Positions 1,554-21,260 of a DNA stretch of 64,000 nt are shown in pieces. Origin of the DNA: Candidatus Omnitrophota bacterium (GTDB lineage: Bacteria; Omnitrophota; Gorgyraeia; Gygaellales; Profunditerraquicolaceae); contig JBAZJY010000005.1 in NCBI GenBank assembly GCA_041651115.1, positions 6,405 to 70,404 on the forward strand. Direction: 5' to 3'. The position numbers and the translations under genes are program-made. Position 1 is the first letter of the stretch. Each line of letters opens with the position of its first letter. A model generated the notes under the pieces. It had not been told where the DNA came from and did not search any database. It saw only the letters and a program-made list of their open reading frames with translations.

Positions 1554-2477
1554 ATGCGGAAAAAACTGCCTTTAATAATAGGTATAGTTTTGGCTTTAGT
1601 AGCCGCGTATCTGATAAAGGTTTATACTGACCAGCAGCGCCAGCTTATTATTGAGGACGCAAGAAAAAAGATAGAGAAGATAAGGACAGAACAGGTGCCG
1701 ATACTTATAGCGGCAAAGGACATCCCTAAAGGCGCGGTCATTGATAAAGAAAGCGTGGGCGTTGCCATTGCGCCTATACAGCATGTACAGCCCCAGGCGG
1801 CTACGTCATTGGACAGGGTTGCCGGTATGATCGCGGTTGTCCCTCTGTCAAAAGGCGAGCAGATCACCTTGAATAAATTAATGTCGTCCAAAGAAGCTGT
1901 GGGCACCGGCTCTCTGGCAATGACCACTCCTATAGGTAAAAGGGCGGTCACTATATCCGTAGATAATATTTCCGCAGTCGGAGGCATGATCTTACCGGGT
2001 GATTATATTGATGTATCGGTGATGATCAGCGTGCCGGTTACAAACCCGGACGGCAAACAGGTTTCGCAGCAAGCAGTTGTGCCTTTGTTTCAGAACATCC
2101 TCGTGCTTGCCGTAGGCCAGGAATTGGCTGCAATGCCTGAAGTGGCGGCAGAAGGCCGTTATGCCAAGAAAGGCAGCAAGCGGGAATTTTCTCCGGCAAT
2201 CACTTTGGCGCTTAGCCCCCAGGAAGCAAATGTCCTCGCTTTTGTCCAGGAGCAGGGAAAGATCCGCCTGTCCCTGCGTTCGCCTTCCGATGCCAAGATC
2301 GAATCAGTGCAACCGGCAAGCTGGGATAGCTTATTCCAGTATCTTATGCCGAAAGAAGAGTTGGAAGCGCAGGCAAGGCAGCGGCAGAAAAAACCCGAGG
2401 AGCCTGCCCCGGAACCGGAGTCATACGTGGAAGTATATAGAGGCTTAAATAAAGAAAAAGTTCCCCTGTTCAAGTGA
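1554..2477 (+). CDS. cpaB: Flp pilus assembly protein CpaB/RcpC
   Basis: N-terminal TM anchor (LPLIIGIVLALVAAYLI), an SAF-like domain (IAAKDIPKGAVIDKESV) and an RcpC-like region (NILVLAVGQ). First gene of a co-oriented Tad cluster. Confidence 0.7.
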   Translation: MRKKLPLIIGIVLALVAAYLIKVYTDQQRQLIIEDARKKIEKIRTEQVPILIAAKDIPKGAVIDKESVGVAIAPIQHVQPQAATSLDRVAGMIAVVPLSKGEQITLNKLMSSKEAVGTGSLAMTTPIGKRAVTISVDNISAVGGMILPGDYIDVSVMISVPVTNPDGKQVSQQAVVPLFQNILVLAVGQELAAMPEVAAEGRYAKKGSKREFSPAITLALSPQEANVLAFVQEQGKIRLSLRSPSDAKIESVQPASWDSLFQYLMPKEELEAQARQRQKKPEEPAPEPESYVEVYRGLNKEKVPLFK

Positions 2478-4110: not shown

Positions 4111-6264
4111 ATGGCTAAGACAATAGTAGTATTCAGCACAAAAGGCGGCGTGGGTAAAACCCTGGTCGCCTCCAACCTTGCCGTATCATTGGCCAAGGAC
4201 CAGAACCAGCGGGTCTGCCTCCTGGATTTTGACCTCCAGGCGATCGGCGACATGTCGCGGATGCTCGGGCTTAACCCCGAAAGGTCGCTGGTAGATATGC
4301 TGGAGCCTTTGAAACAGCAAGGCGCTGATTTTAAAAAAGACCAGTTTTTCAACCGCAATGCTTTTGGAGTTGACTTCTTACCCGCAGTTTTAAAACCCCA
4401 GCATATCCCCAGCCTTAACCCCGAAGGAATAAGAAATGCCTTCAGCCTGCTGGATAAAGAGTACGATTATATCATCGTCGACGGCGGTAAAAGTTTTAAC
4501 GACGCTTTTATGGCGGCATTAAATCAAGCCAATCTTATCCTGTTGGTAATTACTCCGGATATTCTTTCCATATATCAAACTAAACTGGCATTTGATACGC
4601 TGCAGTTCCTGCATTTCCCGCTTTCAATGCTGCGCATCGTTTTAAACCGCGCTGAATCGCTGGCAAGCATCAGCTGGCAGGAGATCAGGGCAAATCTGCC
4701 CGTAGATATCGTTTCGCTTATTCCGTCGGAAGGCAGGGTCGTCGGCCAGGCAGTGAACCGCGGTATACCGGTTGTCGTTGATAATCCCCGCTCAAAGATT
4801 GGCCTGGCAATAAAGAAACTCGCCTTTGATGTTACTAAAGACAGCGGCCTGTTTATTGAGCGCCGTAATTTAGACGAGCTGCAGCTTAAGGAAGAGCCGT
4901 TTGAGAAGTCGGGCGACTTTTGGAAAAAACAGGGCCTCTCGGAAACAATCGCCGAATCCGCATATTCCGAAGAAAGGGATGAAATACAACTTTTAAAACG
5001 CAGGATCCATAACCGCTTGATTGATGAGCTTGATTTGAAACGGCTGGATCTGAAGGTCTTTTCCGACGCTAAGAAAAACAGAGAGATAAATGATAAAGCC
5101 GAGATCCTGGTTGCTAATCTTTTGGCGGATGAAGCCGGCAGCCTGATCTCTTCCCAGGAAGAGCGTAAGAAGATCGTCAAGGAAATCTTAAACGAAGCCT
5201 TGAGGCTCGGGCCCCTGGAAGATTTACTTGCTGACCCGGATGTCACCGACATCATGGTCAACAATAAGGATGAAGTTTACGTAGAACGCAGGGGAAGGAT
5301 TGAGCGGACTGATAAAAAATTCGTTTCCAATATTCAGGTAAAGACGGTTATTGAGCGTATTATTGCGCCCATCGGCAGGCGTATTGATGAAAGCGTTCCA
5401 ATGGTAGATGCCCGCCTGCCTGACGGTTCGCGCGTAAACGCGATCATCCCGCCGCTTTCGCTGACCGGCCCGGCGCTGACAATCAGAAAATTCCGCAAGG
5501 AAAGGTTTAAGATAGACGAGTTGATCGGGATGAACAGTTTAAATTCGGCAATGTCTATATTCTTACAGGCATGCGTAGCCTCGCGCAAAAATATCATTGT
5601 TTCAGGCGGCACAGGTTCCGGTAAAACTACGGTATTGAATGTCTTGTCCGGTTTTATTCCCGACCGGGAGCGCATTATCACCATTGAAGACGCGGCAGAA
5701 TTAAGGCTGCACCAGACCCATTGGATAAGGCTGGAATCACGGCCTCCGAATATTGAAGGAAAGGGCGCGGTGACCATCCGCGATCTTTTCCGTAATACCC
5801 TGCGTATGCGGCCGGACCGCATCATCATCGGCGAATGCCGCGGCATTGAGACATTAGACATGCTCCAGGCAATGAACACCGGCCACGACGGGTCTATGAC
5901 CACTATCCATGCCAATTCCACGTTTGATGCATTAACCAGGCTTGATTCAATGATCCTGATGTCCGGCGTGGACCTGCCGGTCAGGTCAATACGCGAGATG
6001 ATCGCTTCAGCGATTGATATGATTGTCCACACTGCGCGGCTTGCCGACGGCACGCGTAAGATTACCCAAGTAAGCGAGATCTCCGGTATGAAGGAAGACG
6101 GGCACATTGGGCTGCAGGATGTTTTTATGTTCAAGCAGACCGGCATTGACAAGCAACAGATGGCAATAGGTAATTTCTATGCTACCGGATATGTGCCATC
6201 GTTTATTGAAGAAATGAAAGTAAGAGGCATTGCCCTTCCCGAAGATCTCTTCAAAACCCCGTGA
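4111..6264 (+). CDS. fused CpaE/TadZ-like ParA-family ATPase (N-terminal) and CpaF/TadA secretion ATPase (C-terminal)
   Basis: N-terminal deviant Walker A KGGVGKT (MinD/ParA family, as in CpaE/TadZ). C-terminal half has Walker A GGTGSGKTT, RIITIEDAAEL, GHDGSMTTIHANS and a T2SSE-family His box. One continuous 717-aa ORF. Confidence 0.8.
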   Translation: MAKTIVVFSTKGGVGKTLVASNLAVSLAKDQNQRVCLLDFDLQAIGDMSRMLGLNPERSLVDMLEPLKQQGADFKKDQFFNRNAFGVDFLPAVLKPQHIPSLNPEGIRNAFSLLDKEYDYIIVDGGKSFNDAFMAALNQANLILLVITPDILSIYQTKLAFDTLQFLHFPLSMLRIVLNRAESLASISWQEIRANLPVDIVSLIPSEGRVVGQAVNRGIPVVVDNPRSKIGLAIKKLAFDVTKDSGLFIERRNLDELQLKEEPFEKSGDFWKKQGLSETIAESAYSEERDEIQLLKRRIHNRLIDELDLKRLDLKVFSDAKKNREINDKAEILVANLLADEAGSLISSQEERKKIVKEILNEALRLGPLEDLLADPDVTDIMVNNKDEVYVERRGRIERTDKKFVSNIQVKTVIERIIAPIGRRIDESVPMVDARLPDGSRVNAIIPPLSLTGPALTIRKFRKERFKIDELIGMNSLNSAMSIFLQACVASRKNIIVSGGTGSGKTTVLNVLSGFIPDRERIITIEDAAELRLHQTHWIRLESRPPNIEGKGAVTIRDLFRNTLRMRPDRIIIGECRGIETLDMLQAMNTGHDGSMTTIHANSTFDALTRLDSMILMSGVDLPVRSIREMIASAIDMIVHTARLADGTRKITQVSEISGMKEDGHIGLQDVFMFKQTGIDKQQMAIGNFYATGYVPSFIEEMKVRGIALPEDLFKTP

Positions 6265-6608
6265 AAATAATAAACATCACAAAAGGCACTGTCGTAGCAG
6301 ATAATGCCGTTATCGCTTCTACTTTTTTTAAGCGTCTCAAAGGCCTGCTTGGTAGAAAAAGCATTGAGAAGGGCGAAGCGCTTATAATACAATCCTGCAA
6401 TTCTATCCACAGTTTTTTTATGCGTTTTCCCATTGATGTCCTATTTGTTAATAAGACCGATAAAGTAGTTGCTGTCACAAATTCCTTTGCTCCTTTTCGT
6501 ATCAGCAAGATCTATTTTACCGCTTCTTATGTTATTGAGCTTCCCGCCGGCTCTATAAAAGCTACTTCTACCTCTGTGGGAGATAAGATAGAAATAACTG
6601 CTGGTTAA
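6261..6608 (+). CDS. DUF192 (COG1430) family protein
   Basis: 115 aa. GTG start overlaps the upstream TGA (GTGA), suggesting translational coupling. LKGLLGRK...GEALII..CNSIHSFFMRFPIDVLFV...VIELPAG matches the DUF192 pattern. Confidence 0.55.
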   Translation: MKIINITKGTVVADNAVIASTFFKRLKGLLGRKSIEKGEALIIQSCNSIHSFFMRFPIDVLFVNKTDKVVAVTNSFAPFRISKIYFTASYVIELPAGSIKATSTSVGDKIEITAG

Positions 6609-8323: not shown

Positions 8324-8468
8324 GATTGACGCTTGTTTGTGCGGATGTTATAGTTAGATTGCGATTATAAATATATATATAAGGTAGGATGGTCGGGGGG
8401 GCCGGCCAAGCAAAGCCACGGATGATGTATACTAATTGTCTTTTTATGATTTTGTGGCGTGAAAGCTT

Positions 8469-8500
8469 GCAGCCGGCAGTATTCTGCCGGCTTTTTATTT
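8469..8500 (+). terminator. Rho-independent terminator-like hairpin just upstream of the first pilin gene
   Basis: Perfect 9-bp stem agccggcag / ctgccggct with loop tatt, followed by TTTTTATTT. It lies 10 nt before the pilin RBS (gggag), so it could also act as a 5'-UTR attenuator. Confidence 0.6.
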
Positions 8501-8510
8501 GGGAGTAAAA

Positions 8511-8834
8511 ATGATTTTTAAAAAAGCATTAAGCCAGAGTACCATTGAATATGTGTTGCTGGTGGCAATCACTATAATCGCGCTGGTGGTAGGAGCGAAT
8601 TTTGTTGATCAGATCAAGGGCGGTGCGTTTCAGGCGCATTTTGATGCGGCAAAACCCTTTGTAGCCGGGGAAACAGTTATCTATACCGCGCAGCCTGAGG
8701 CTCCAAGTAACACAGGCAGTACGGGAAATGTTCCGGCGGGCTGTGAATCCTGCCCCAATGATTGCCAATTGTGGCGGACCCAGGTGGGGCCGGATATGCA
8801 GACTTATTGGCGGTGCCCGCCGAACAGAGGATGA
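8511..8834 (+). CDS. Flp-type pilin paralog P1 with a 4-Cys C-terminal extension
   Basis: GGGAG RBS. Class-III leader MIFKKALSQSTIEY followed by the hydrophobic helix VLLVAITIIALVVGA. C-terminus GCESCPNDC...WRCPP. Confidence 0.6.
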   Translation: MIFKKALSQSTIEYVLLVAITIIALVVGANFVDQIKGGAFQAHFDAAKPFVAGETVIYTAQPEAPSNTGSTGNVPAGCESCPNDCQLWRTQVGPDMQTYWRCPPNRG

Positions 8835-8835
8835 G

Positions 8836-9306
8836 ATGATAGATCTGTTAAAGACGACAAGAAAACTAGCCCAGAGCCTTATTGAATACGTGATGATCTT
8901 TGCGATCGTCGCTGCGGCGCTGGGGGTAACTTATAAATATGTTTACCGTTCAATGAACGCGCGTTTGGATGATATACAGGATGTGGTAACTCCTGACCGG
9001 CCTGACGGCGGCAATTGGGATCTGCCCGACGTTGATCCGCCGGATGATCCTGAGCCGCCGAATACGGATTTAGAGAGTTGCCTTGCCGGTAATGACGCGG
9101 AATGTAACCAGCGTTTACAAGAAGGCATAGAATATTGTTGCGTGGAGTGTTGCGGCGCTGTTATGGCTGCTTGTAATGCTAATCCAAGCGACAGCGGTAT
9201 TTGTAACCCGGGTGCTCCCAGTAATGGTTGCCGCTATCCAGAGATTACCAATTGTCAGCAAAGCGGTGAGGCCCAGAGGGATATTTGCTGCGAGAATAAA
9301 TATTAA
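8836..9306 (+). CDS. Flp-type pilin paralog P2 with a 12-Cys C-terminal domain
   Basis: ATG 1 nt after the P1 stop. Leader MIDLLKTTRKLAQSLIEY plus VMIFAIVAAALGV. Pro/Asp-rich linker, then 12 Cys including CC pairs (YCCVECCG, DICCENKY). Confidence 0.6.
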   Translation: MIDLLKTTRKLAQSLIEYVMIFAIVAAALGVTYKYVYRSMNARLDDIQDVVTPDRPDGGNWDLPDVDPPDDPEPPNTDLESCLAGNDAECNQRLQEGIEYCCVECCGAVMAACNANPSDSGICNPGAPSNGCRYPEITNCQQSGEAQRDICCENKY

Positions 9307-9322
9307 CGCGGGTAAAGAAAAG

Positions 9323-9841
9323 ATGAAGAGACCTTACAGATTAGCCCAGAGTCTTATTGAATACGTGATGATCTTTGTGATCGTCGCTGCGGCAGTAGGG
9401 GTAACTTATAAATATATTTATCGCGCAATAAACGCGCGCTTAAAAAACACGCAGGATGAGCTGAACTATAGCCGTTCTGTTGAGGGAGTGGAAGCAGATG
9501 AGTATAATGACGGCAGCGGAGATAAAATTGAGACTTCTGTCGGGAATACTCGTCCGGGCTGTGAGTCTTGCCCGGATAATTGTCGGTCGCGGGTAGTAGC
9601 AACAGGCCGCGGCGGACCTAGTGCGGGTAATTGGGGGGTTGAGTGGTATTGCGCACCGGCTACAGGCGGAAACACAGGTGGAGATACAGGCGGAAACACA
9701 GGTGGAGATACAGGCGGAAACACAGGTGGAGATACCGGCGGTGACACAGGTGGGAATACCGGTGGTTGTCCTGCCGGCTCGCATCGGGTTTGTCATCCAT
9801 GCGGCCGCGGGGATACTTGTTGTAATTGCGTAGGCAATTAA
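9323..9841 (+). CDS. Flp-type pilin paralog P3 with Gly-rich repeats and a 10-Cys C-terminal domain
   Basis: Leader MKRPYRLAQSLIEY plus VMIFVIVAAAVGV. GCESCPDNC motif shared with P1. (GGNTGGDTGG)n repeat encoded by a 30-nt DNA tandem repeat. C-terminal CPAGSHRVCHPCGRGDTCCNC. Confidence 0.6.
   Translation: MKRPYRLAQSLIEYVMIFVIVAAAVGVTYKYIYRAINARLKNTQDELNYSRSVEGVEADEYNDGSGDKIETSVGNTRPGCESCPDNCRSRVVATGRGGPSAGNWGVEWYCAPATGGNTGGDTGGNTGGDTGGNTGGDTGGDTGGNTGGCPAGSHRVCHPCGRGDTCCNCVGN
9655..9765 (+). repeat. 30-nt tandem repeat (about 3.5 copies) inside pilin P3, encoding (GGNTGGDTGG)n
   Basis: acaggcggaaacacaggtggagat acaggcggaaacacaggtggagat acaggcggaaacacaggtggagataccggcggtgacacaggtgggaat. Confidence 0.8.
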
Positions 9842-9897
9842 TGTTGAGCGATCTTAATATGAACAAAAAACAGCAAAACGAAGGAGGTGAAAGAGAA

Positions 9898-10095
9898 ATG
9901 AGAAAGATGAGAAGGGAAGGACAGAGTATTCTTGAATACACCCTGCTTTTGGGTGCGATAATTGCAGTAATCGTAGCGGTTTTATTAGGTGGCCAAAGCA
10001 GCATGAAAGGTAAGGTAGAGGATACGTACGATGCGTTTGGTAATGCAATAAGCAATACGGCAAACGATGCGGATATCGGCGTGCTTACTCCGTAA
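9898..10095 (+). CDS. canonical short Flp pilin P4 (66 aa)
   Basis: GGAGGTG RBS. MRKMRREGQSILEY with the G-XXXX-EY Flp prepilin motif, then LLLGAIIAVIVAVLLGG. Typical Flp size. Confidence 0.75.
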   Translation: MRKMRREGQSILEYTLLLGAIIAVIVAVLLGGQSSMKGKVEDTYDAFGNAISNTANDADIGVLTP

Positions 10096-10114
10096 CGGAT
10101 AAGGAGGTAGTAAA

Positions 10115-10507
10115 ATGTTTCTAAGGAAGAAAGGACAATCTACTGCCGAATACGCGATTGTCATCGGCTTAGTGATTGCCGTGGCAGCAGGCATACTTCA
10201 GGTTGCCTTAAAAGGCGGCATCCGGCAGAAGAATAAACAGGCTACGGATTATTTGGTTGGTGAGAATGACGGCACAGACGGCGGTGCAGGCGGCTACGCG
10301 GCAATGAACGCCCAGATCGCATTAGGTGATCCTGCTGAACTCTACACCCAGGAAATGCGCGATACTACGGTTTTAGGCGGAGATGCCAACTACGTAGATG
10401 AAAGCGTAATGCTTAAAGGCGGAGCAGAGGAAAGACGGCAGAAGCAGGTTACCGAGACAACAGCTGTCAGCGTAGAGGCTATTGAAGGCGTAACAACGGG
10501 GAATTAA
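10115..10507 (+). CDS. Flp-type pilin paralog P5
   Basis: AAGGAGGT RBS. MFLRKKGQSTAEY plus AIVIGLVIAVAAGILQ. Confidence 0.7.
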   Translation: MFLRKKGQSTAEYAIVIGLVIAVAAGILQVALKGGIRQKNKQATDYLVGENDGTDGGAGGYAAMNAQIALGDPAELYTQEMRDTTVLGGDANYVDESVMLKGGAEERRQKQVTETTAVSVEAIEGVTTGN

Positions 10508-10548
10508 ACCGTACCGTAGATCAAAAAGTCATAGGGAGGTGAGCAATA

Positions 10549-11004
10549 ATGTTAAGGCGCAATAGTGGTCAATCAATAGTGGAGTACGCTATTCTTTTAG
10601 GCGTAATCATCGCGGCCTTATTGATCATGCAGGCATTCATCAAAAGAGGCTATCAGGGCGGCCTGAAAGATTCCGCGGACAAGATGGGCGAGCAGTTTTC
10701 CGCAGGAAATACCACAATCAAACAGGCAAGGACAATGGCAGAGGATCAAACTATCAGGGAAGCAGTGGCAACTGATGATGAAATAGCGCTGTTTACCGGC
10801 GACGTAGGCATAGCAGACGTACCGCGTACGCTTGACGCAGGCGCTTATTCTTATAGCGAGCGCAGCCCGGTGGAAATAGCTTCTACCACGCACGTAGTAA
10901 CTGACAGCGCTGATCAGGAAGCAACAAGAAAAGACGCATACGCTAATGTGCAAGTGACCAACTTTCAGTTTGTCAGTCCTGATAGTGATTTTGAAAGGCC
11001 GTAA
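10549..11004 (+). CDS. Flp-type pilin paralog P6
   Basis: GGGAGGTG RBS. MLRRNSGQSIVEY plus AILLGVIIAALLIMQ. Confidence 0.7.
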   Translation: MLRRNSGQSIVEYAILLGVIIAALLIMQAFIKRGYQGGLKDSADKMGEQFSAGNTTIKQARTMAEDQTIREAVATDDEIALFTGDVGIADVPRTLDAGAYSYSERSPVEIASTTHVVTDSADQEATRKDAYANVQVTNFQFVSPDSDFERP

Positions 11005-11017
11005 TAAGGTGGAAAAA

Positions 11018-11209
11018 ATGAAAAGACCCCTTAAGAGAGGACAGAGTATTCTTGAATACGCCCTGCTTTTGGGCGCGATAATCGCAGTGATCGTCGCAGC
11101 TTTACTGGGCAGAGGCGGTATCCAGAGTAAGGTGAGGAATAGTTATGATACTTTCGGAGATGCGATTGAGAGCACGACAACTGATCTAACAAGCAGTGTA
11201 TTTAGATAA
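11018..11209 (+). CDS. canonical short Flp pilin P7 (paralog of P4)
   Basis: AAGGTGG RBS. MKRPLKRGQSILEY plus ALLLGAIIAVIVAALLG. 64 aa. Confidence 0.75.
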   Translation: MKRPLKRGQSILEYALLLGAIIAVIVAALLGRGGIQSKVRNSYDTFGDAIESTTTDLTSSVFR

Positions 11210-11221
11210 GGAGGTAGTAAA

Positions 11222-11581
11222 ATGTTTCTAAGGAAGAAAGGACAATCTACTGCCGAATACGCGATTGTCATCGGCTTAGTGATTGCCGTGGCAGCAGGCA
11301 TACTTCAGGTTGCCTTAAAAGGCGGCATCCGGCAGAAGAATAAAAAAGCAGTGGATTTCTTAGTCGGCGCAGGCAATGACGTTGCTGCCTTTAGCAATGC
11401 CGCGTCCACAGACATCCAACTCTACACCCAGGAAATGCGCGATACTACGGTTTTAGGCGGAGATGCCAACTACGTAGATGAAAGCGTAATGCTTAAAGGC
11501 GGAGCAGAGGAAAGACGGCAGAAGCAGGTTACCGAGACAACAGCTGTCAGCGTAGAAACAATTGACGCTGCAGGACAATAA
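11222..11581 (+). CDS. Flp-type pilin paralog P8 (duplicate of P5)
   Basis: RBS and first ~40 aa identical to P5, and the C-terminal ~45 aa are near-identical. The middle segment has diverged. Confidence 0.7.
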   Translation: MFLRKKGQSTAEYAIVIGLVIAVAAGILQVALKGGIRQKNKKAVDFLVGAGNDVAAFSNAASTDIQLYTQEMRDTTVLGGDANYVDESVMLKGGAEERRQKQVTETTAVSVETIDAAGQ

Positions 11582-11603
11582 AAAATTAGGGAGGTGAGCA
11601 ATA

Positions 11604-12059
11604 ATGTTAAGGCGCAATAGTGGTCAATCAATAGTGGAGTACGCTATTCTTTTAGGCGTAATCATCGCGGCCTTATTGATCATGCAGGCATTCATCAAAA
11701 GAGGCTATCAGGGCGGCCTGAAAGATTCCGCGGACAAGATGGGCGAGCAATATTCTGCCGGCGGAACAACGATCCATAAAAGGAACGCGTTAGGCGCGGG
11801 AGGCCAGCAGATCGTAGAAGAAGTAGCGACAGTAGACGGGTCATCGCCGCTTGCTACTCTTAGCGGGCTTACGCCGGTAGGCACAATCGGCGGCGGAAAG
11901 AGCGCCTATTCTCTGAATACCAGGACAGGCGATACGATGACCTCAACCACAAAAGTGGATACTGACGATGCCCGGCACGAAGCGACAAGAGTGGCGGATT
12001 ACGGCGATGTGTCCAGTTCGGGAGGTAATTTCGCGCTGAGCGATAACGTTGATTTTTAA
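11604..12059 (+). CDS. Flp-type pilin paralog P9 (duplicate of P6)
   Basis: RBS and first ~55 aa identical to P6. The C-terminal half has diverged. Confidence 0.7.
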   Translation: MLRRNSGQSIVEYAILLGVIIAALLIMQAFIKRGYQGGLKDSADKMGEQYSAGGTTIHKRNALGAGGQQIVEEVATVDGSSPLATLSGLTPVGTIGGGKSAYSLNTRTGDTMTSTTKVDTDDARHEATRVADYGDVSSSGGNFALSDNVDF

Positions 12060-12082
12060 GCAGCTAAAAACGGGACAGTGCA

Positions 12083-12409
12083 ATGTTTATAAAAAAGAAT
12101 GGCCAGAGCCTGATGGAATACGCGATACTCTTCAGCGTAGTCGCGGCAGCGCTGTTGATCATGCAGTTTTACGTCAAGCGCGCATACCAGGGCAGGATAA
12201 AGCAGGACGCCGATGAGGTTGGCCAGCAGTATTCTCCGGGCCACACTGCATCTTCGATTTATACCAATACGATGGCAACAAGCACGACCTGCATCGGCGG
12301 CAACTGCTTTGGCCAGGATATTCCCATGGGTATGACCGTGACGAGCGGCAGTACAAGCACGACAATGAGAAAACGGGAAGGGGTTGATTCCTTTGCTTCC
12401 GAGAGGTAG
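12083..12409 (+). CDS. Flp-type pilin paralog P10
   Basis: MFIKKNGQSLMEY plus AILFSVVAAALLIMQ. VKRAYQGRIKQDADEVGQQYSPG is paralogous to the matching segment of P6/P9. Confidence 0.65.
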   Translation: MFIKKNGQSLMEYAILFSVVAAALLIMQFYVKRAYQGRIKQDADEVGQQYSPGHTASSIYTNTMATSTTCIGGNCFGQDIPMGMTVTSGSTSTTMRKREGVDSFASER

Positions 12410-12764
12410 GGCATGCCGCAACAGCGGCTATAGCGTAGTGATGTGGGCAGCAATGTTTGCCGTAATGGTGGGCATGGTGCTTTTTTTCCGCACGCCGATA
12501 AAACGGGCGATGCAGGGGAAAATAAACGATATGGCTGATTATATGTTTTGGACCAAATGGGGCCAGGCGCGTGAGCAATATAAGGGCGATGACACCGGTT
12601 ATACCAAGACAGATACTACCACCATTTCAAGAACAGAACTGGCAGACCGGAGAGGATTTGTTACTTCGGCAATGGATATTTCCGTAGGCGACAGCACCTC
12701 AACTACCGGCGTGAATGACGGGGATCAGGACGCATTGAAAAGCATTGACCTTAACGCTATTTAG
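12384..12764 (+). CDS. degenerate pilin-like paralog, possible pseudogene
   Basis: RNSGYSVVMWAAMFAVMVGMVLFF aligns to RNSGQSIVEYAILLGVIIAALLIM of P6/P9 but the EY is lost, there is no in-frame ATG with an RBS (TTG/GTG only), and it overlaps the P10 stop. IKRAMQGKINDMADYM is conserved with paralogs. Confidence 0.3.
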   Translation: MIPLLPRGRACRNSGYSVVMWAAMFAVMVGMVLFFRTPIKRAMQGKINDMADYMFWTKWGQAREQYKGDDTGYTKTDTTTISRTELADRRGFVTSAMDISVGDSTSTTGVNDGDQDALKSIDLNAI

Positions 12765-12771
12765 CCATAAA

Positions 12772-13584
12772 ATGAAAAAGAATAGGCATAACGATCATAA
12801 AATAATGGGTCAGGCAGCAGTTGAGCTGGCTATTTTCGGCAGTCTGGTGGTATTGGCTTTTTCTGTCCTTATAATGTACGGCCAGCGTTTTGACAACCAG
12901 CAGGAAATAAAAATGGAAGCGTTCCGTCGTGCCCTGCAAAAAGCTTATGAGCGTAATTCAAGCGTAAGTTATACCTATAAAAAAGAAGGCCGTAACTTGA
13001 ACCTTTTCGGCGCGTTTGGCCGCGGCCAGCCCTCTACCGTAGTTTCCACGGCCAGCGTAATGTGGCAAAAAGGCGTATCCGGCGAGCAGGACAGCAGCGG
13101 AAAAGAAAACTTCGCTTATTACCGGATCAACGACTATATGGTAGGCGATGAGATGGGCCTTCCGCGTTATCCTAAACACGTAGAAAGCCTTAGCGGCAAA
13201 AAGGAAAGGGTCCGGGTGCCTGCCAGCGTTTATTCCGAGGAAACGGAAAGAACAGAGATTTACGGTTCCAGCGTAGGCAAGCGCGAGAGCGCTGCGAGCA
13301 TAATTAATACCGCGACTTCCGACTTGACCGATACCGTTTATACAAAATTGCATGTGCGCGTTGACCATTCATACGACGACAATCCTCATGACAATTCAGT
13401 GCCCTTACCGGACTATGCGTATGAAGATCACAGCTATGATAACGAAGGTTCGCAAACAGTCCAATCCGTGCCGGGGGTTTCTCTTGGCGCTTACTCTAAG
13501 GATGCTACCAATCGCGTGAGCTACCGCCAAGATCAGGTTGGCACAACCATTCACCGCGAAAGGACATGGCAAACTGATAATTAA
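12772..13584 (+). CDS. TadE/TadF-like pseudopilin
   Basis: N-terminus GQAAVELAIFGSLVVLAF matches the TadE-like signature (G-x-x-x-VE-F/L-A plus a hydrophobic helix). ~270 aa is typical of TadE/TadF. Confidence 0.55.
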   Translation: MKKNRHNDHKIMGQAAVELAIFGSLVVLAFSVLIMYGQRFDNQQEIKMEAFRRALQKAYERNSSVSYTYKKEGRNLNLFGAFGRGQPSTVVSTASVMWQKGVSGEQDSSGKENFAYYRINDYMVGDEMGLPRYPKHVESLSGKKERVRVPASVYSEETERTEIYGSSVGKRESAASIINTATSDLTDTVYTKLHVRVDHSYDDNPHDNSVPLPDYAYEDHSYDNEGSQTVQSVPGVSLGAYSKDATNRVSYRQDQVGTTIHRERTWQTDN

Positions 13585-13585
13585 T

Positions 13586-15082
13586 ATGAGATCTAAAAAG
13601 TCCCAGTCAATTTTTGATTACACACTTGCCTTTATTGCCTTGGCAGCGCTGGTAGTGGGCATTGTCCGCACCTGGGTCTGGTTCAACGCCAACTATGCCA
13701 AGCGCCAGATGGCTTATCAGACCAGTCGTATTGTTGCCGGCGGCCGCACCTGGCTTGAAGATACCCCAACGGCTTTTGATACTCCTTACGAGGTTCCTTA
13801 TGATATCGGCGCTACCCAGGAAAGCCCCAGCCGTATTTATCAACCCCTTCCTTTGAATAATAACTGGGTATTCGGCGGTCTGGCTTCAGGCAGCACAGGC
13901 GTTGCTGTTGTCGGCGGAGAAGACTGGGTCGGCGGTTTAGGCGCCTGCGGGGACCAATGCACCCAAGAGTGCATTGGTGACACAGCGTGTTATTCAGGAG
14001 TCGGAGATTTTAACACCCTTTGCAGCTGTTACCAGGCTTGTTTTTCAGAATGTAATTGTTTAAGGCAGATATCGCCCATGACCACTCTCTATGCGTCGCA
14101 AATAAGGGATATTTGCGGCCCGGATAACGATTGTAATGTTTCTACTTGCGTTTATTCCGATTGTGAAACTACTGCCGGCTGCGGTCTTGCCTGTAATATG
14201 CGCTGGAGCGCGCAGAGGATGCGGGATGCCGCAGAGCGCTGCGATGACTTTTGGGACGGGCCGTGCAACTGGTTTGGCGGCGGAAGGTCAGCCAGGCAGC
14301 TTAGAGCAGCGGCAAAAGAACTTATCAGGATGGCCTGGCAGCAGGAAATGGGAGCAAGGTTGTCAGGGCGTTCTTCCGTGCGTTTACAGCGTTGCTGTGA
14401 GATGCAGACTGATCTTTTAGCAGCGCAGTGCATGGAAACCGCGCAGAGTACAAATGAATGCGATGCCAATTGCCTGGAGGCCGCTATTGATGTTTTTTAT
14501 GCATGCGTAGAGCGGGGAGTTGATATGGGAATGGTTACCGTTCATCTTGACGGCCCTTGTTTTGTAGAAGCGGAAATCCATAATACTTTTTGCGCTGTTG
14601 CATGCATGACCGGGGAAAACGTACCTTGCGAGGACAAAGTAACGACGCACATTAACGGCTTAAATAGTCAGATAGATGCTTATGAACAGATTATTGAAGA
14701 TAATGAAGATCTTGTAGAAGAAATAGGGGATGTGCTTGCGCAGGCCGCAGCTGCTGCAAGCACAGCTTGTGCTTATAGCAATGATACTTCCTGTTATGCC
14801 GCGGCAAGAAACGATTACTGCATGAACAACTGTTGCCGGGGAGGGGCTTGGGGCAGGGCTTGCGATGAGCCTGCGGAAAACTGCGATAATTGCGCGGGAG
14901 ATGAGTCTTGTCCTGCGTGCGGGCTTTCCCAGCTTAGCGCCAATGTCCAGGCTCAAAATGAAAACTTTGAAGAGGCGATATTAGCGATGCAGGAGGCGAT
15001 CGCGGCTTTGCCGGCCTGCTGCGATGAAGCCGTTGCGATCGTGCAGGACAGGTGCATCAGTAATATAATCAATAACCTATAA
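13586..15082 (+). CDS. Flp/TadE-like prepilin N-terminus fused to a ~400-aa domain with about 40 cysteines
   Basis: MRSKKSQSIFDY plus TLAFIALAALVVGIV, then a domain dense in C-x-x-x-C and CC motifs (GACGDQCTQECIGDTACY, CSCYQACFSECNC, CMNNCCRGG, ENCDNCAGDESCPACG). Confidence 0.6.
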   Translation: MRSKKSQSIFDYTLAFIALAALVVGIVRTWVWFNANYAKRQMAYQTSRIVAGGRTWLEDTPTAFDTPYEVPYDIGATQESPSRIYQPLPLNNNWVFGGLASGSTGVAVVGGEDWVGGLGACGDQCTQECIGDTACYSGVGDFNTLCSCYQACFSECNCLRQISPMTTLYASQIRDICGPDNDCNVSTCVYSDCETTAGCGLACNMRWSAQRMRDAAERCDDFWDGPCNWFGGGRSARQLRAAAKELIRMAWQQEMGARLSGRSSVRLQRCCEMQTDLLAAQCMETAQSTNECDANCLEAAIDVFYACVERGVDMGMVTVHLDGPCFVEAEIHNTFCAVACMTGENVPCEDKVTTHINGLNSQIDAYEQIIEDNEDLVEEIGDVLAQAAAAASTACAYSNDTSCYAAARNDYCMNNCCRGGAWGRACDEPAENCDNCAGDESCPACGLSQLSANVQAQNENFEEAILAMQEAIAALPACCDEAVAIVQDRCISNIINNL

Positions 15083-15099
15083 TTAAAAGAGATGCTGCG

Positions 15100-16428
15100 A
15101 TGATCAAGATATCCCGGAATAAAGCGCGTTATGAAAAAGGCCAGATATTCCCGTTTCTTATTGCCGTATTGGTAGTCATTTTGATCGCAATAATGATTAC
15201 GGTCAACCTTGGCCAAGTCGGGATGCTTAAGGTTGATACATCCAATGCGGCAGATGCCGGAGCGCTTGCCGCGGCCAGCACTTTAAGCGGTTATTTGTTG
15301 GGTTTTGGCCTAAAAAGCGATTTTATGGAAGCGCATATGATCACTACCGAAATCTGGGCGGTGATTAACTTTCTGGTGCATTGCGGGGATGGGCCTTATG
15401 GCTGGATAGTCGGACTGGTCCTGGCGCTTATCACCCATATCGCCGGCATGATCAAGAACTTCATAGAATATTTTATCGCGCTCACCGAAGGTAAAATGGC
15501 TTGGGGCCAGGCGAAAAAAACTGCTTTTCAGTATGCTTTTCAAAACGCCGGGGTAGATGAGGTGCGGCCGACTTTCCGGCAGTTCCTGGAGGGCGTATAT
15601 GGGATTTCCGGCGATGAAATAAACGATGTTTCGCCGGCAGACATGGCGCATTACTACAATGTTTATTCCATTGGCGATGATCCCAATAACGCCGGCTTAA
15701 GAAGCCTGATAAAGCAATATACGCAAACCGGATTTAACAAATATATGGAAGAAGCCAGGTATTGGAGATGGGGAAAGATCGCGCCGTGGGAAGGGACTTT
15801 TCCGCCGCGCGTGACTTCCGGTTACGGGTGGAATGATGATGGCACAAACGTCTGTACGGGCAGTAATGATTGCAGGGTTAATGAAGGCGAAGCGTATAAA
15901 AATTACGAAAACTGGGTAGAAGTTGAAATAATGGGTAACATAATGTATCCCCTTGATATATACAGCCCGCTTGCCGAACTTTTTGAAGCGGCCAGGGACC
16001 GGATCCTTGATGCGATTGAAGATGCAGATATGTGGGGCTGGGTAGAAGATATAGCCGATTTCGTCGTCAATCTGATATTCGGAATTACTGCCGGATCTAC
16101 GCAATTTACTTTTCCCGCCGGCTTGGAAATGAGCCCCATAGTGCCCAATACAAGACAAAATCCCATGCATGTCTGGGTCAGGCGCTACAAGAAGAATAAA
16201 GATATTGGACTATGGAATTTTGATTATGGAACCAGCGAATCGTATGCCCAGGGACGCGCTTTTGGCGAAAGAGGAACTGAAGATATTACGCCTGCATTAA
16301 GCGGCCAGATATCGGGATTTATAACCCAATGGATTGACAGCGGAGATAAGCCGGAAGTAGATGACATGTATGACATGTTTGATACCAGTCAGCATTTGTT
16401 TGAAACCGAAATTTCATACGCGAGGTAG
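15100..16428 (+). CDS. TadG-like pilus assembly protein
   Basis: KGQIFPFLIAVLVVILIAIMITVNLGQVGMLKVDTSNAADAGALAAASTL matches the TadE/G-like N-terminal signature (hydrophobic helix, then VD...A.DAAALAAA). Confidence 0.6.
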   Translation: MIKISRNKARYEKGQIFPFLIAVLVVILIAIMITVNLGQVGMLKVDTSNAADAGALAAASTLSGYLLGFGLKSDFMEAHMITTEIWAVINFLVHCGDGPYGWIVGLVLALITHIAGMIKNFIEYFIALTEGKMAWGQAKKTAFQYAFQNAGVDEVRPTFRQFLEGVYGISGDEINDVSPADMAHYYNVYSIGDDPNNAGLRSLIKQYTQTGFNKYMEEARYWRWGKIAPWEGTFPPRVTSGYGWNDDGTNVCTGSNDCRVNEGEAYKNYENWVEVEIMGNIMYPLDIYSPLAELFEAARDRILDAIEDADMWGWVEDIADFVVNLIFGITAGSTQFTFPAGLEMSPIVPNTRQNPMHVWVRRYKKNKDIGLWNFDYGTSESYAQGRAFGERGTEDITPALSGQISGFITQWIDSGDKPEVDDMYDMFDTSQHLFETEISYAR

Positions 16429-16432
16429 AACT

Positions 16433-17284
16433 ATGCTTAGACAAAAGAATATCTTGATTGCGGCAGTTGTTTTAGCATTGATCACGGTATTTTGCCTGCC
16501 CGGTTTTGCGCAAGCCAATGTTGATTTTGAAGTGCCGGTGCCCGAAGGCAGTAGTTTAGTAGAAGATAGGGATATTGCTATGGGGGGCAGGCAGATAAAG
16601 ATAAAGGTTTATACTGCTCCCGTGAGCAGCGCAGCCATCCTGGGCTATTACCGGAGTTTTTTCAGCCAACAGGGGTTCCAGAAAATCCTGGATAAACCCG
16701 AACCGGAGTTAAACAAGCACCTCTTGCGTTTTAAGCAAGGTGATGCGGTAGTTGCCATCGGTGTCTTGAATAAGCCCGGGATAAACAAGATAGTGATTGC
16801 CCGTTATTTGCAGAAAGCCGGCCAGCTTCCTCCGGAAAAATCCGGCGTTTCTTTGACGGAGCTTTTTTCTATGGTGCCGAAAAAAGAGGCTGCAGGCAAG
16901 GATTTGGCAGCTGTGCCCCGCCCGGATAATAGTATCAGGGCGGCTTTTACGGAGCGCGGCGATCATACGCAGCTTTTGTATATCGCGCCGATGAACGCAG
17001 TATCCGTAGTTGATTTTTACAAGAAAGAAATGGAAGCCCAGGGATGGGAGTTAAAAAGGGAGGTTCTCGGCTCTGAAGGCCTGGGTGCTTACGGGATAGC
17101 TAAAGAAGACGCCTTTACCCCGGAAAATCCTATTCTTGAAAGGCCGGGCCATAAGCAGGTCATCCAGGAGATGTCTATACTTGAGTTCAGCGCTGATTTT
17201 GGCGACGCGGAAATAACTATTTTACCGGATCCCAGCCAGGCCCCTGCTGGTTCCGTAATTAAAATTGAGTACGATGAAAAATGA
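16433..17284 (+). CDS. secreted hypothetical protein with an internally duplicated ~110-aa domain
   Basis: GAGG RBS. Signal peptide MLRQKNILIAAVVLALITVFCLPGFAQA. Two similar halves (ILGYYRSFFSQQGFQKI and VVDFYKKEMEAQGWEL). No recognised family. Confidence 0.5.
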   Translation: MLRQKNILIAAVVLALITVFCLPGFAQANVDFEVPVPEGSSLVEDRDIAMGGRQIKIKVYTAPVSSAAILGYYRSFFSQQGFQKILDKPEPELNKHLLRFKQGDAVVAIGVLNKPGINKIVIARYLQKAGQLPPEKSGVSLTELFSMVPKKEAAGKDLAAVPRPDNSIRAAFTERGDHTQLLYIAPMNAVSVVDFYKKEMEAQGWELKREVLGSEGLGAYGIAKEDAFTPENPILERPGHKQVIQEMSILEFSADFGDAEITILPDPSQAPAGSVIKIEYDEK

Positions 17285-17601
17285 AAAAAAATAGCCAAAC
17301 AATATTGGATTATGTTATACTACTGCTGGTTGTGATTACTGCCTTGATGATCATGGGGCATTATGTGAGGAACAGCCTCTCCGGAAAAATGCGCGAAGGC
17401 GCAGATGTATTTTCGCAGGGAGAAGTTTACAGCAACGCGAATACGCACATAACGGAGAACACCATAACGAACGAGGGCGGGTCTATAGATATTGACCTTA
17501 GCGGCCTTGAAGGTCTTAATCTTACCGGCCTTGATTTCACTTGGCTCAACAACTGGACTTTATTTGATGTTGATTTTGGCGGCTGCCCGTTTTGTTGGTA
17601 A
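17281..17601 (+). CDS. Flp-type pilin paralog P13
   Basis: ATGA overlap with the upstream stop. MKKNSQTILDY plus VILLLVVITALMIMG. C-terminal GGCPFCW. Confidence 0.55.
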   Translation: MKKNSQTILDYVILLLVVITALMIMGHYVRNSLSGKMREGADVFSQGEVYSNANTHITENTITNEGGSIDIDLSGLEGLNLTGLDFTWLNNWTLFDVDFGGCPFCW

Positions 17602-17637: not shown

Positions 17638-18495
17638 ATGGTATTTGTCGGCATACTCATAGCTGTTTTTCTTGCCCTCTATATGCTTTCCGATTATTTT
17701 ATGGAAAGCGTCATCCCTTCCCTGACCGGTTATTACGGTGAAATTCAATTAAGGCGCACCGGTAAACTCAGGGGCCAACTTGAAGAATCATTTATTTTCT
17801 GGGAAAAAAAGCGGCTGATGTTGATTTCGCTTGCCCCGCTTATCTTCGGCGGTATATCTTTTCTTTTACTCCGCCACGTCCTTGCCGCGGCTGCCGGGTT
17901 TTTACTGGGGTTTGCTTTCCCGGGATTTATGGTCAAAATGGCGTATCAGGCAAGGATGAAAAAGTTCCAGGGCCAGCTGGTTGATTCGTTGATCATGCTT
18001 TCTTCGTCGCTGAAAGCGGGTTTGAGCTTTATCCAGGCAATAGAGGTTATGTGCGAAGAAATGCCCGCTCCCATATCACAGGAATTCAAGCTGGTTTTGA
18101 AAGAAAACCGCTGGGGCTTAAACCTTGAAGAATCCCTAAAAAGACTACGTAAGCGCGTGCCGCTTGAAGAGGTCAATCTCCTGGTCAGTTCTATCCTCAT
18201 TGCCCGTGAATCAGGCGGCGAGCTGCCCAAGGTCCTTATGCGGTTGACAACTACTATACGCGATAACATTAAATTAAAAGAAAAGATCGCCACTCTCACA
18301 TTGCAGGGAAGGCTGCAGGGCTTAATCATGATGTTTTTGCCTATCGGCTTTAGCTATTTTGTTTCCAAGCAGAACCCCGAGCATTTTGTGGTAATGTGGC
18401 AGAATGCCACGGGCAGGATGTTCATTATGATTGCCGTAGGGCTGCAGATCGTCGGCATGGTCTTGATAAAGAAGATAAGCACAATACGCATATGA
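17638..18495 (+). CDS. tadB: Tad pilus inner-membrane platform protein TadB (T2SS F-type domain)
   Basis: Polytopic. T2SSF-type domain (SLKAGLSFIQAIEVMCEE...VNLLVSSILIARESGGELPKVLMRL). Confidence 0.75.
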   Translation: MVFVGILIAVFLALYMLSDYFMESVIPSLTGYYGEIQLRRTGKLRGQLEESFIFWEKKRLMLISLAPLIFGGISFLLLRHVLAAAAGFLLGFAFPGFMVKMAYQARMKKFQGQLVDSLIMLSSSLKAGLSFIQAIEVMCEEMPAPISQEFKLVLKENRWGLNLEESLKRLRKRVPLEEVNLLVSSILIARESGGELPKVLMRLTTTIRDNIKLKEKIATLTLQGRLQGLIMMFLPIGFSYFVSKQNPEHFVVMWQNATGRMFIMIAVGLQIVGMVLIKKISTIRI

Positions 18496-19373
18496 TGCTC
18501 TATATAATTCTCGCCCTAATCGCAAGTTCAGTATTCCTAATTGTTTACGGAATTTTTGAAGCAAGGCAGGTGCCCCGGCTGCAGTTATTTAATAATATGC
18601 CGCGCCAGAAAAAAGGCGGCTTTGAAAGTATTAAAAAGTCAGCGGCTTACGGCCTGTTGTTGAGGCAAACCGGATTTATTACCCGGCCGTTATTAAAGCT
18701 GCCGTATTTTGTGAACTTGCAGGCGCAGGCAGACGTATTAAAGATAAACATTGACCTCCCCGCGTTTATTCTATTAAAGTTGATCGTGGGCGTCATTGTT
18801 TCTTTCTTAGTCTTTAGATTGCTGTCTCCGACCTATGCCATAATCGGCCTTTTGGTGGGGTTTTTCGTGCCGGATTTTTTTATGTGGAACAAAGTCAAAG
18901 AAAAGAAAGACGCCATTGTCAGGATCTTTCCGGAAACAGTTGACCTTTTGGACATGTGTATTAATGCCGGAGCGGATTTCCTTTCCGCTATTAAATGGGT
19001 GGTGGAAAAAAGCGACCCCAATCCATTTATTGAGCAGCTTTCTATTGTCTTAAGCGAGATCCAGGTTGGTAAAACCCGTTCGCAGGCGCTCAAGGACTTG
19101 GGCAACAGGCTCAAACTTCCCGATATCAGTAGTTTTGTGCGCACGATAATCCAATCGGAAAGAATGGGTACTTCCATTGAAGAGGCGTTCGGCAACATGT
19201 CCCAAGATACGCGCGAAAAGCGCTTCCAGTCCGGCGAGAGATATGCCATTAAGGCTTCGCTGAAGATCCTTTTCCCCTTGCTTTTTTGTATCCTGCCTGC
19301 TATATTAATCGTAGTTGCCGGCCCGGTTATTATTAAATTTACCTCGGGCGAGCTGATCCCCAAGAATTTCTAA
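18492..19373 (+). CDS. tadC: Tad pilus inner-membrane platform protein TadC (T2SS F-type domain)
   Basis: ATGA overlap with the tadB stop. T2SSF domain (TVDLLDMCINAGADFLSAIKWVV...SFVRTIIQSERMGTSIEEAF). TM helices at both ends. Confidence 0.75.
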   Translation: MMLYIILALIASSVFLIVYGIFEARQVPRLQLFNNMPRQKKGGFESIKKSAAYGLLLRQTGFITRPLLKLPYFVNLQAQADVLKINIDLPAFILLKLIVGVIVSFLVFRLLSPTYAIIGLLVGFFVPDFFMWNKVKEKKDAIVRIFPETVDLLDMCINAGADFLSAIKWVVEKSDPNPFIEQLSIVLSEIQVGKTRSQALKDLGNRLKLPDISSFVRTIIQSERMGTSIEEAFGNMSQDTREKRFQSGERYAIKASLKILFPLLFCILPAILIVVAGPVIIKFTSGELIPKNF

Positions 19374-20633: not shown

Positions 20634-21260
20634 TCGTTAGGTTTAGTAATTAGGTTATGGTAAGGAAGCCGGTATGGTAGTTAGGTTATGGTTAAGTATA
20701 AAACCCGGATCGTTTTTTGAATTTAGTCCAAGACATTGACAGCTTATATAATTGCCTGCCCGAGATATCATATGAAGTAATAAGCTCATCGCATAGTTGC
20801 ATATTTATGGCATAGGAATATATATCTTTACACTGATTTAGACTCACTACCGTTTCATTACATTCTCCCATAGCATCATCAAGGTATTTTTGAAACCCCA
20901 TTTTTTGGTGTCTCTTGGCATAGCCTTCAGCTATCAATCTTGGGATAGCCTTACATGATCTCGCCAGTTGGTCTTTTAAATCATATTTTTCGTTATCAGG
21001 TAATCTCGGGATAATTTTTGTCATTACCTCTATGGCAGCTTTATAAGTGTTTTGGTACACATTCAAATCACAAAAACTTCTAATTGGTTTTTTAATTTCC
21101 ATAATTTGGTCCTATTTCTTCAGCTAGACTTAGAATACGATCGCCTTCTGTAATAATAGACGAATAAACAGAATAAATCTAACTCAAAAACATGTCATTT
21201 TAACCTAACCTTAACCCTTTAAACTATACTGGTTTCTTTACCATAACCTTAAACATAACC
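20634..21260. mobile_element. IR-flanked cassette: arms of the hairpin-repeat family enclosing a four-helix-bundle gene
   Basis: Left arm 20634-20696 (..ggttatggtaaggaagccggtatggtagttaggttatggttaag). Right arm 21199-21260 (aacctaaccttaacc..aaactatactgg..ccataaccttaaacataacc) is its reverse complement. In copies 1, 2 and 5 the arms abut across a short loop. Here they are ~500 bp apart with a gene between. Confidence 0.5.
20692..21102 (-). CDS. four-helix-bundle protein (23S rRNA intervening-sequence / Avd-like family)
   Basis: SFCDLNVYQNTYKAAIEVMTKIIPRLPDNEKYDLKDQLARSCKAIPRLIAEGYAKRHQKMGFQKYLDDAMGECNETVVSL matches the conserved F-x-DL-x-VWQ / IAEG signature of this family. Only convincing minus-strand gene in the window. 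Confidence 0.7.
   Translation of the reverse strand: MEIKKPIRSFCDLNVYQNTYKAAIEVMTKIIPRLPDNEKYDLKDQLARSCKAIPRLIAEGYAKRHQKMGFQKYLDDAMGECNETVVSLNQCKDIYSYAINMQLCDELITSYDISGRQLYKLSMSWTKFKKRSGFYT

Follow-up and report, generated by a model that had tools for sequence, protein, structure and literature searches.

A Tad (type IVc) pilus locus carrying 14 pilin-like genes and one TadG-like gene was found in a 64,000-nt stretch of the genome of a Candidatus Omnitrophota bacterium (GenBank assembly GCA_041651115.1, contig JBAZJY010000005.1, positions 6,405 to 70,404 of the forward strand), hereafter called the window. This large repertoire is a trait of the whole clade and is mostly a fixed set of distinct parts, which we sorted into ten classes; only the four extra genes of this genome, designated B', C', D', and E', look like alternative subunits. 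We consider it reasonably probable that the locus encodes a single Tad pilus, in which class C forms a Flp-type shaft that is accompanied by numerous accessory and tip pilins, constant as a set, and by a few alternative subunits.

The pilin block was delimited by a six-frame scan of the whole 64 kb with the motif [G/A/S]-Q-[S/T]-x-x-[E/D]-Y followed by at least 18 hydrophobic residues. The strict motif yielded 12 open reading frames (ORFs), all on the + strand between 8511 and 17601, and none elsewhere in the window, which confirmed the claim of the initial annotation that one block holds 12 paralogs with class-III-type leaders. A looser pattern gave just three matches outside the block, all of them unrelated. 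Therefore, the clustering of the motif is not due to chance. Each ORF begins with a short basic leader, which is followed by a small residue with Q-[S/T]-x-x-[E/D]-Y and then by a hydrophobic helix. A recount of the residue at position −1 gave seven Gly, two Ala, and three Ser among the 12 ORFs, replacing the earlier tally of six, two, and four. A thirteenth match on the same strand, G/QAAVEL at 12808 (the slash marks the predicted cleavage site), corresponds to class H, and the ORF at 12384 to 12764, previously described as a degenerate copy, was reassigned as the conserved class G, for which related loci contain orthologs in the corresponding position. Neighbouring pilin-like genes overlap by as much as 26 nt or lie up to 56 nt apart; their leaders have 5 to 15 aa, and the mature sizes are 55 to 492 aa. 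The Shine-Dalgarno sequence GGAGG precedes C, D, E, D', and E', while AAGGTGG precedes C'. No ORF is disrupted and each has a ribosome-binding site, which rules out pseudogene copies.

The window was compared with 8 reference-genome loci and 59 metagenome loci, using the motif scan first and then BLAST against the mature proteins of the window. Every complete related locus, meaning one that covers the whole region, read A-B-C-D-E-F-G-H-I-(TadG-like gene, secreted protein gene)-K, down to a TadB identity of 56%. Since ten classes of such diverse size (Table 1) are kept in a constant order, they point to non-redundant parts of one machine. The expansion is thus clade-wide and not peculiar to this genome, and it had rightly been called unusually large, as it far exceeds the canonical Tad model with its Flp, TadE/F, and TadG. 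All named relatives of the locus proteins came from Omnitrophota metagenome-assembled genomes, and the TadB relatives in reference genomes were almost all labelled Candidatus Omnitrophota.

The window reaches 14 genes by a doubling of class B and of the C-D-E cassette. Independent expansions were observed in loci L021, L035, and L054, each with two C copies, and in the distant relative L058, whose D and E genes are each present in three copies that share their N-termini; the BLAST census adds two class C matches in L058. The class I protein of L058 comprises 1052 aa with 79 Cys. Between positions 5000 and 13500 of L058, the D/E paralogs are separated by long repeated intergenic elements with hairpin potential.

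The identification of the locus as a Tad locus was upheld by the presence of RcpC, an RcpA-type secretin, a TadZ-TadA fusion, TadB, TadC, and a TadG-like gene. The TadG-like assignment of the ORF at 15100 to 16428 rests on a match of its N-terminus to PF13400 with 31.6 bits against a cut-off of 22.3 (E = 2.1e-7). The TadE-like assignment of the ORF at 12772 to 13584 (class H) stood by motif but not by profile, as this protein gave no match to Pfam TadE (PF07811) and only distant orthologs did so, below the threshold (20.9 and 13.2 bits); class D reached 17.2 bits, with the cut-off at 22.9.

Class C is the best candidate for the major (shaft) pilin. Flp pilins are small, about 40 to 60 aa when mature, and lack a globular domain. 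The mature C and C' proteins have 57 and 55 aa, and class C measures 55 to 66 aa in most loci; the other ten motif ORFs have 99 to 492 aa. Classes A, B, and K are Flp-sized in the relatives and larger in the window, and class C is the sole class of Flp size in every genome compared. It has 171 detectable relatives, the named ones all from Omnitrophota; NCBI lists the window protein as "Flp family type IVb pilin", and JGI lists many of the relatives as "Flp pilus assembly pilin Flp". When the class C profile was compared with the PDB, Caulobacter PilA/Flp ranked second to third and was the sole pilin among the top hits (all E > 0.2). Based on its Flp size, database names, and PDB ranking, class C was treated as the probable shaft pilin. 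The first C copy also has the strongest Shine-Dalgarno sequence. Consequently, the earlier term "Flp-type paralogs" was retained for C and C' only, and there with the reservation that Pfam Flp_Fap is not matched.

Several results weigh against a Tad pilus with a class C shaft. The Flp_Fap family (PF04964; COG3847) gave no match at E ≤ 1 in ten window proteins covering nine classes, the NCBIfam scan of the pilin-like proteins matched no pilin model, and no copy reached the threshold of the Flp, TadE, or class III signal families in Pfam or NCBIfam. The only profile matches, to Class_IIIsignal, TadE, and DUF4244, were sub-threshold, so that family membership is not claimable from profiles; PF04021 (class III signal) was matched by class A alone, with 13 bits against a cut-off of 23.7 (E = 0.1). 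The alignment of class C with PilA is colinear over 39 of 45 residues and, at an E-value of about 0.5, not significant. The shaft could instead be formed by class A, the first gene of the operon. Furthermore, no prepilin peptidase was seen among the window ORFs that were read or scanned, not every ORF having been scanned with Pfam.

The predicted cleavage site was tabulated for 421 related N-termini. Position −1 was occupied by Gly in 276, by Ala in 113, and by Ser in 30 of these, position +1 by Gln in 374 and by Tyr in 22 (mostly class G), and position +5 by Glu in 350, Asp in 38, and Met in 17. The residue at −1 was class-specific, with Ala in 33 of 35 class B sequences and Ser or Ala in 30 of 31 class I sequences, and none of the 12 scanned pilin-like N-termini of L058 had Gly at this position. 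The pattern of Flp leaders, with Gly followed by x-x-x-x-E-Y and about 20 hydrophobic residues, fits the 12 motif ORFs of the window, and Gly stands at −1 in 7 of the 12. Relaxed specificity of the peptidase had been suggested earlier; judging from these sequences, an enzyme that accepts Gly, Ala, or Ser at −1 is plausible, and the residue is a property of the class.

According to the proposed mechanism, a prepilin peptidase encoded elsewhere in the genome would cut the leaders after Gly, Ala, or Ser, exposing Gln at +1 (Tyr in class G) and leaving Glu or Asp at +5 (Met in class G). Class C, present in two copies, would most likely polymerise into the shaft, classes A, B, and K would most likely serve as low-copy accessory or adapter subunits, and classes D to I, including the large Cys-rich class I, would most likely form the priming and tip complex together with the TadG-like protein. 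The tip assignment follows the model proposed for TadE/F/G and for the "Tips" of the Myxococcus Kil system. In this genome, a second B gene and a second C-D-E cassette have been added and Cys-rich modules fused onto A, B, and B', and the duplicated copies and Cys-rich add-ons may act as alternative subunits that dock into the same helical core.

By analogy, the Kil pilus of Myxococcus xanthus appears to be the best-fitting framework for these roles. It was described as a Flp shaft with Flp-like adapter pilins and disulfide-rich, interchangeable Tips (Herrou et al., 2025; PMC12075869). As proposed for the locus studied here, the Kil and Bdellovibrio Tad machines, both of predators, combine one Flp shaft pilin, adapters, and TadE/F/G-like minor pilins with variable disulfide-rich distal domains. 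However, the subunits of the window lie in one operon, whereas the Kil tips are dispersed over four to five loci; duplication here took place within the locus and affected C-D-E, whereas Kil varies by whole KilLMN trios; and the class I head is predicted to be all-alpha, without detectable similarity to KilN.

A different machine, although rather unlikely in our judgement, is a type II secretion-like pseudopilus, in which a short periplasmic piston and cap would export or anchor the giant proteins encoded downstream. Such a role would suit the position of the locus, which immediately precedes two ORFs of 2515 aa and more than 11,500 aa; in a 2026 preprint, 13 of 14 giant genes were found to have secretion or pilus genes in their flanks, and type II secretion systems typically comprise many minor pseudopilins. 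However, all identifiable parts are of the Tad type, namely TadZ-TadA, the split TadB/TadC, RcpC, the N-domain of the RcpA-type secretin, and the TadG-like protein. The pilin-like proteins gave no match to the N_methyl or GspG-K pseudopilin families when scanned, and position +1 is Gln or Tyr instead of the Phe or Met of type IVa pilins and type II secretion pseudopilins (N-methylation motif G/[FM]xxxE). The giant proteins were moreover reported to be membrane-embedded with many transmembrane segments, unlike a type II secretion substrate. Pilus and secretion functions are in any case not mutually exclusive.

The initial annotation had further proposed that the repertoire comprises many alternative subunits or serves antigenic or host-range diversification. 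In its full form, in which all members of the repertoire would be major pilins that can stand in for one another and thereby provide antigenic, phase, or host-range variation, this explanation is improbable. The C, D, and E duplicates do have conserved 5' ends and divergent 3' parts, D and E were expanded independently in L058, and a 12-nt repeat in B' varies in length from one assembly to another. However, the ten classes, ranging from about 45 to more than 1000 aa, hold their order and class-specific leaders in all complete loci, the genes form a single tightly packed operon with their own ribosome-binding sites and without silent, promoterless, truncated copies, and variation is limited to one to three classes. 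The proposal thus fails for most of the repertoire, and the four extra genes alone look like alternative subunits.

For the extra genes, a recombination mosaic was observed. The two C-D-E cassettes have a mean column identity of 84% with a bimodal distribution, comprising three identical DNA runs of 140, 139, and 163 nt and 53% identity outside them. For both D and E, the identical runs include the ribosome-binding site, the leader, and the N-terminal helix, and for D also a C-terminal block. Accordingly, D and D' share an identical N-terminus of 41 aa and an identical 45-aa C-terminal block, with a middle stretch of around 30 aa replaced, while E and E' are identical over their first 49 aa and 38% identical over the remaining 100 aa or so. 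The C-terminal part of E' is 33% to 47% identical to orthologs in other species and no closer to E (38%), and an E'-like allele with 73% identity was found elsewhere.

Synonymous sites were compared by counting, over the N-terminal codons of the mature proteins, the positions with the same amino acid and a different codon. There was only 1 such position among 43 codons between E and E' and 0 among 35 between D and D', whereas the comparison with the L003 orthologs gave 20 to 21 of 43 for E or E' and 18 of 35 for D, and that with the L021 orthologs gave 17 of 43 for E and 8 of 35 for D; for C and C' the value was 7 of 23. Divergence by point mutation after a recent duplication was ruled out, because zero to one synonymous changes stand beside segments of 38% identity. 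The mosaic of D and E can therefore have arisen only if the 5' parts underwent gene conversion or the 3' parts were replaced by recombination. Either process would have kept the ribosome-binding site, leader, and N-terminal helix identical next to unrelated exposed parts; with the N-terminal core constant, the extra copies are plausible alternative surface or tip subunits.

The duplication was also checked in a separate megahit assembly, where three contigs tile the C-D-E array. An artefact, in which strain variants were collapsed into a false tandem array or decaying pseudogenes were counted as genes, is extremely unlikely: the megahit contigs do break exactly at the identical blocks, a repeat that confuses assemblers, but contig L011 matches window positions 10554 to 11727 exactly and crosses the unique E-to-C' junction, running from the 3' end of E and the 5' end of C' through D' into E', E and E' are recorded in NCBI and JGI and C' also in ENA, the NCBI record gives E, C', and E' consecutive locus tags on one 71,867-bp contig, every ORF is intact with its ribosome-binding site, and similar duplications are present in unrelated contigs.

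The individual genes are listed in Table 1. The window copies of A, B, and B' carry Cys-rich C-terminal modules without counterpart in their orthologs, as class A orthologs have at most one Cys and class B orthologs none. The module of class A reads GCESCPNDC...WRCPP and that of B' GCESCPDNC...WYCAP, giving the common form GCESCP[ND][DN]C...W.C[AP]P; in a comparison that covered these modules, that of B, and class I, a clear module in common was found for A and B' only. A 12-nt tandem repeat at 9661 to 9768 of B' encodes (GGNTGGDT)n, and its product is 8 aa shorter, or about two repeat units, in contig L010 of the separate assembly. This difference could be population length variation or an assembly collapse.

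Classes E and F share the post-helix motif IMQ-x-x-x-KR-x-x-QG. A single-chain AF2 model of class E (pLDDT 76.5) shows a pilin-like architecture, with a predicted helix at residues 6 to 51 followed by four beta strands. Class G proteins of related loci have the signature G/YS[LF]VMW, in which Tyr occupies position +1 and Met, in most cases, position +5. For class I, just three homologs were detectable, with about 30 invariant Cys; its single-chain model, of low confidence (pLDDT 61.8), predicts a helix at residues 7 to 50, a low-confidence or disordered linker, and an all-alpha Cys-rich head, for which Foldseek found no structural match in the PDB. Class K invariably lies directly before tadB.

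Table 1. Features of the window. A slash marks the predicted cleavage site; position −1 refers to the codon preceding it; sizes are those of the mature proteins in aa.
Feature	Coordinates	Strand	Position −1	Leader/mature start	Size, window	Typical size, comparison loci	Remarks
tRNA gene	179..253						Rfam, 60.3 bits
RcpC/CpaB	1554..2477	+					Pfam
RcpA/CpaC-type secretin	2488..4101	+					Secretin and T2SS-T3SS_pil_N; C-terminal TonB_C (52.5 bits)
TadZ (ParA/MinD-like) fused to TadA ATPase	4111..6264	+					717 aa; T2SSE and ParA-like domain
DUF192 (COG1430) gene	6261..6608						Overlaps tadZA stop
Predicted promoter and structured 5' leader	8326..8498	+					TTGACG-17-TATAGT
Pilin class A	8511..8834	+	8532	MIFKKALS/QSTIEY	99	46-59	4 Cys
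Pilin class B, copy 1	8836..9306	+	8869	...RKLA/QSLIEY	144	43-47	12 Cys
Pilin class B, copy 2 (B')	9323..9841	+	9344	MKRPYRLA/QSLIEY	164		10 Cys
Pilin class C, copy 1	9898..10095	+	9919	MRKMRREG/QSILEY	57	53-66 (one 78-aa copy)	
Pilin class D, copy 1	10115..10507	+	10133		123	106-138	First of mosaic pair D/D'
Pilin class E, copy 1	10549..11004	+	10567		144	134-162	
Pilin class C, copy 2 (C')	11018..11209	+	11039	MKRPLKRG/QSILEY	55		
Pilin class D, copy 2 (D')	11222..11581	+	11240		112		
Pilin class E, copy 2 (E')	11604..12059	+	11622		144		
Pilin class F	12083..12409	+	12101	MFIKKNG/QSLMEY	101	93-110	
Pilin-like class G	12384..12764	+		...NSG/YSVVMW		98-129	Tyr +1, Met +5
Pilin-like class H	12772..13584	+	12808	...KIMG/QAAVEL	257	226-352	TadE-like by motif only
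Pilin class I	13586..15082	+	13601	MRSKKS/QSIFDY	492	78-1052	40 Cys
TadG-like protein (class J)	15100..16428	+					N-terminal PF13400 "Tad" domain
Conserved 283-aa protein	16433..17284	+					Sec-type signal peptide; between TadG-like gene and pilin K
Pilin class K	17281..17601	+	17293	MKKNS/QTILDY	101	47-66	
TadB	17638..18495	+					One T2SSF domain
TadC	18492..19373	+					One T2SSF domain
23S_rRNA_IVP domain gene	20692..21102	−					Four-helix-bundle domain
2515-aa ORF	21562..29109						Downstream of Tad locus
Open frame, >11,500 aa	29501..64000						Continues past window end

Upstream of the pilin block, the predicted promoter leads into a structured 5' leader that measures about 140 nt and contains an invariant GCCACGG block, and the same region was found in L003, L004, L006-L009, L031, L046, L047, and L050. 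A terminator-like hairpin with a T-run at 8471 to 8492 closes the leader 7 to 19 nt before the class A start codon, and its stem has three compensatory pairs in an alignment of seven sequences. An Rfam search of the leader gave no known RNA family. Judging by these features, the region at 8326 to 8498 is a candidate attenuator or riboswitch-like leader. In addition, a near-palindrome, GAAAACGCTTTC (pattern GAAARCGNTTTC), lies at 8294 to 8305, where the 508-aa gene has its 3' end, and precedes the −35 box by about 20 nt. It occurs once in the window versus 0.07 times expected by chance. The near-palindrome occupies the same relative position in the loci checked and, among the 29 fetched loci having it, is present as a single site in 28 and as two sites in one, so that we regard it as a candidate operator.

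According to Pfam, the genes upstream of the pilins are ordered as Rotamase_2 peptidyl-prolyl isomerase, RcpC, secretin, TadZ-TadA, DUF192, and the 508-aa protein, the last of which gave no match in the Pfam scan. The TonB_C domain on the Tad secretin is an unusual fusion, and a gene of similar size at the DUF192 position was seen in at least one related locus (L007). A tRNA gene lies upstream of the Tad locus. Downstream, in the interval that separates the Tad locus from the giant ORFs, the small 23S_rRNA_IVP gene alone lies on the minus strand. The open frame, with its 11,500 aa or more, belongs to the giant genes of Omnitrophota.

Among known systems, the Flp/Tad pili of Caulobacter (CpaA-L/PilA) and Aggregatibacter (Flp1-TadA-G) resemble the present locus in having TadA, TadB, TadC, TadZ, RcpA, and RcpC, a Flp-sized pilin with x/xxxxEY and a hydrophobic helix, and TadE-like and TadG-like genes in the operon. 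In contrast to the canonical Flp, TadE/F, and TadG, however, ten conserved pilin-like classes (14 genes) are present here, with leaders of 5 to 15 aa, a nearly invariant Gln at +1, and Ala or Ser at −1 in about a third. The fusion of TadZ to TadA, the TonB_C domain of the secretin, the absence of tadV from the locus, and the lack of a Flp_Fap match are further differences. The predatory Tad system of Bdellovibrio bacteriovorus, which has a TadZA fusion, several flp genes, tad loci without TadV, and processing of Flp1 by PilD, agrees with the window in the unusual TadZ-TadA fusion and in the lack of TadV in the locus. Omnitrophota TadB and TadC have also been reported to group with their Bdellovibrionales counterparts.

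The archaeal EppA-dependent (Epd) pilins have short leaders, a conserved Gln at +1, and Glu at +5 (PMC4371748), and a descent of Tad systems from Epd-like archaeal pili has been proposed (PMC6668835). The window pilins share the short basic leader, Gln +1, and Glu +5; class A adds its weak PF04021 match, and JGI labels some class E relatives "UPF0333". However, the present system belongs to a bacterial diderm with a secretin, its motif is Q-S-x-x-E-Y instead of Q-x-S-x-E, and no EppA-like peptidase was seen here. The likeness in Gln +1 and Glu +5 thus reads as a resemblance in sequence, not as membership.

The locus itself was already known. A conserved "type II secretion-like" locus was described in a preprint as lying upstream of the giant genes found in Omnitrophota (West-Roberts et al., 2023), and one sentence of that preprint mentions many small genes there with class III signal peptides; therefore, the existence of many pilin-like genes at this site is not new. 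Tad complexes were reported in Velamenicoccia, with expression in V. archaeovorus (Seymour et al., 2023). The pilin classes, the ten-class order, the class-specific −1 residues, the cassette duplications, and the mosaic are absent from the searchable texts of both studies. The anatomy of the pilin-like genes worked out here extends this outline, and its new details are the ten-class architecture, the class-specific −1 residues, and the recombination mosaic.

The Omnitrophota are abundant, uncultured, and ultra-small bacteria, and the single member studied in enrichment culture preys on a methanogen. The bacterium from which the window derives is probably a predator as well. The Tad locus and the neighbouring giant genes are the main genomic clues to how Omnitrophota attack other cells, and the parts list makes it possible to model the pilus as shaft, adapters, and tip and to compare it with the predatory pili of Myxococcus and Bdellovibrio. 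The variable subunits D, E, and I and the Cys-rich add-ons, which may contact the prey, would be the ones relevant to prey recognition. Moreover, a Tad lineage that routinely has Ala or Ser at −1 and Gln at +1 bears on the specificity of prepilin peptidases and on the proposed archaeal origin of Tad systems. As a speculative extension, to which we assign a low probability, the C-D-E cassette may be a recombination-driven variation module, in which invariant 5' parts, comprising the ribosome-binding site, the leader, and the N-terminal helix, would serve as anchors for gene conversion and allow unrelated, exposed head segments to be swapped within and between Omnitrophota populations, so that the cassette sets prey or host range while the ten-subunit pilus acts with the adjacent giant protein in prey attack. 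If this is true, cassette swapping would provide these ultra-small predators or parasites with interchangeable surface or tip subunits of the pilus.

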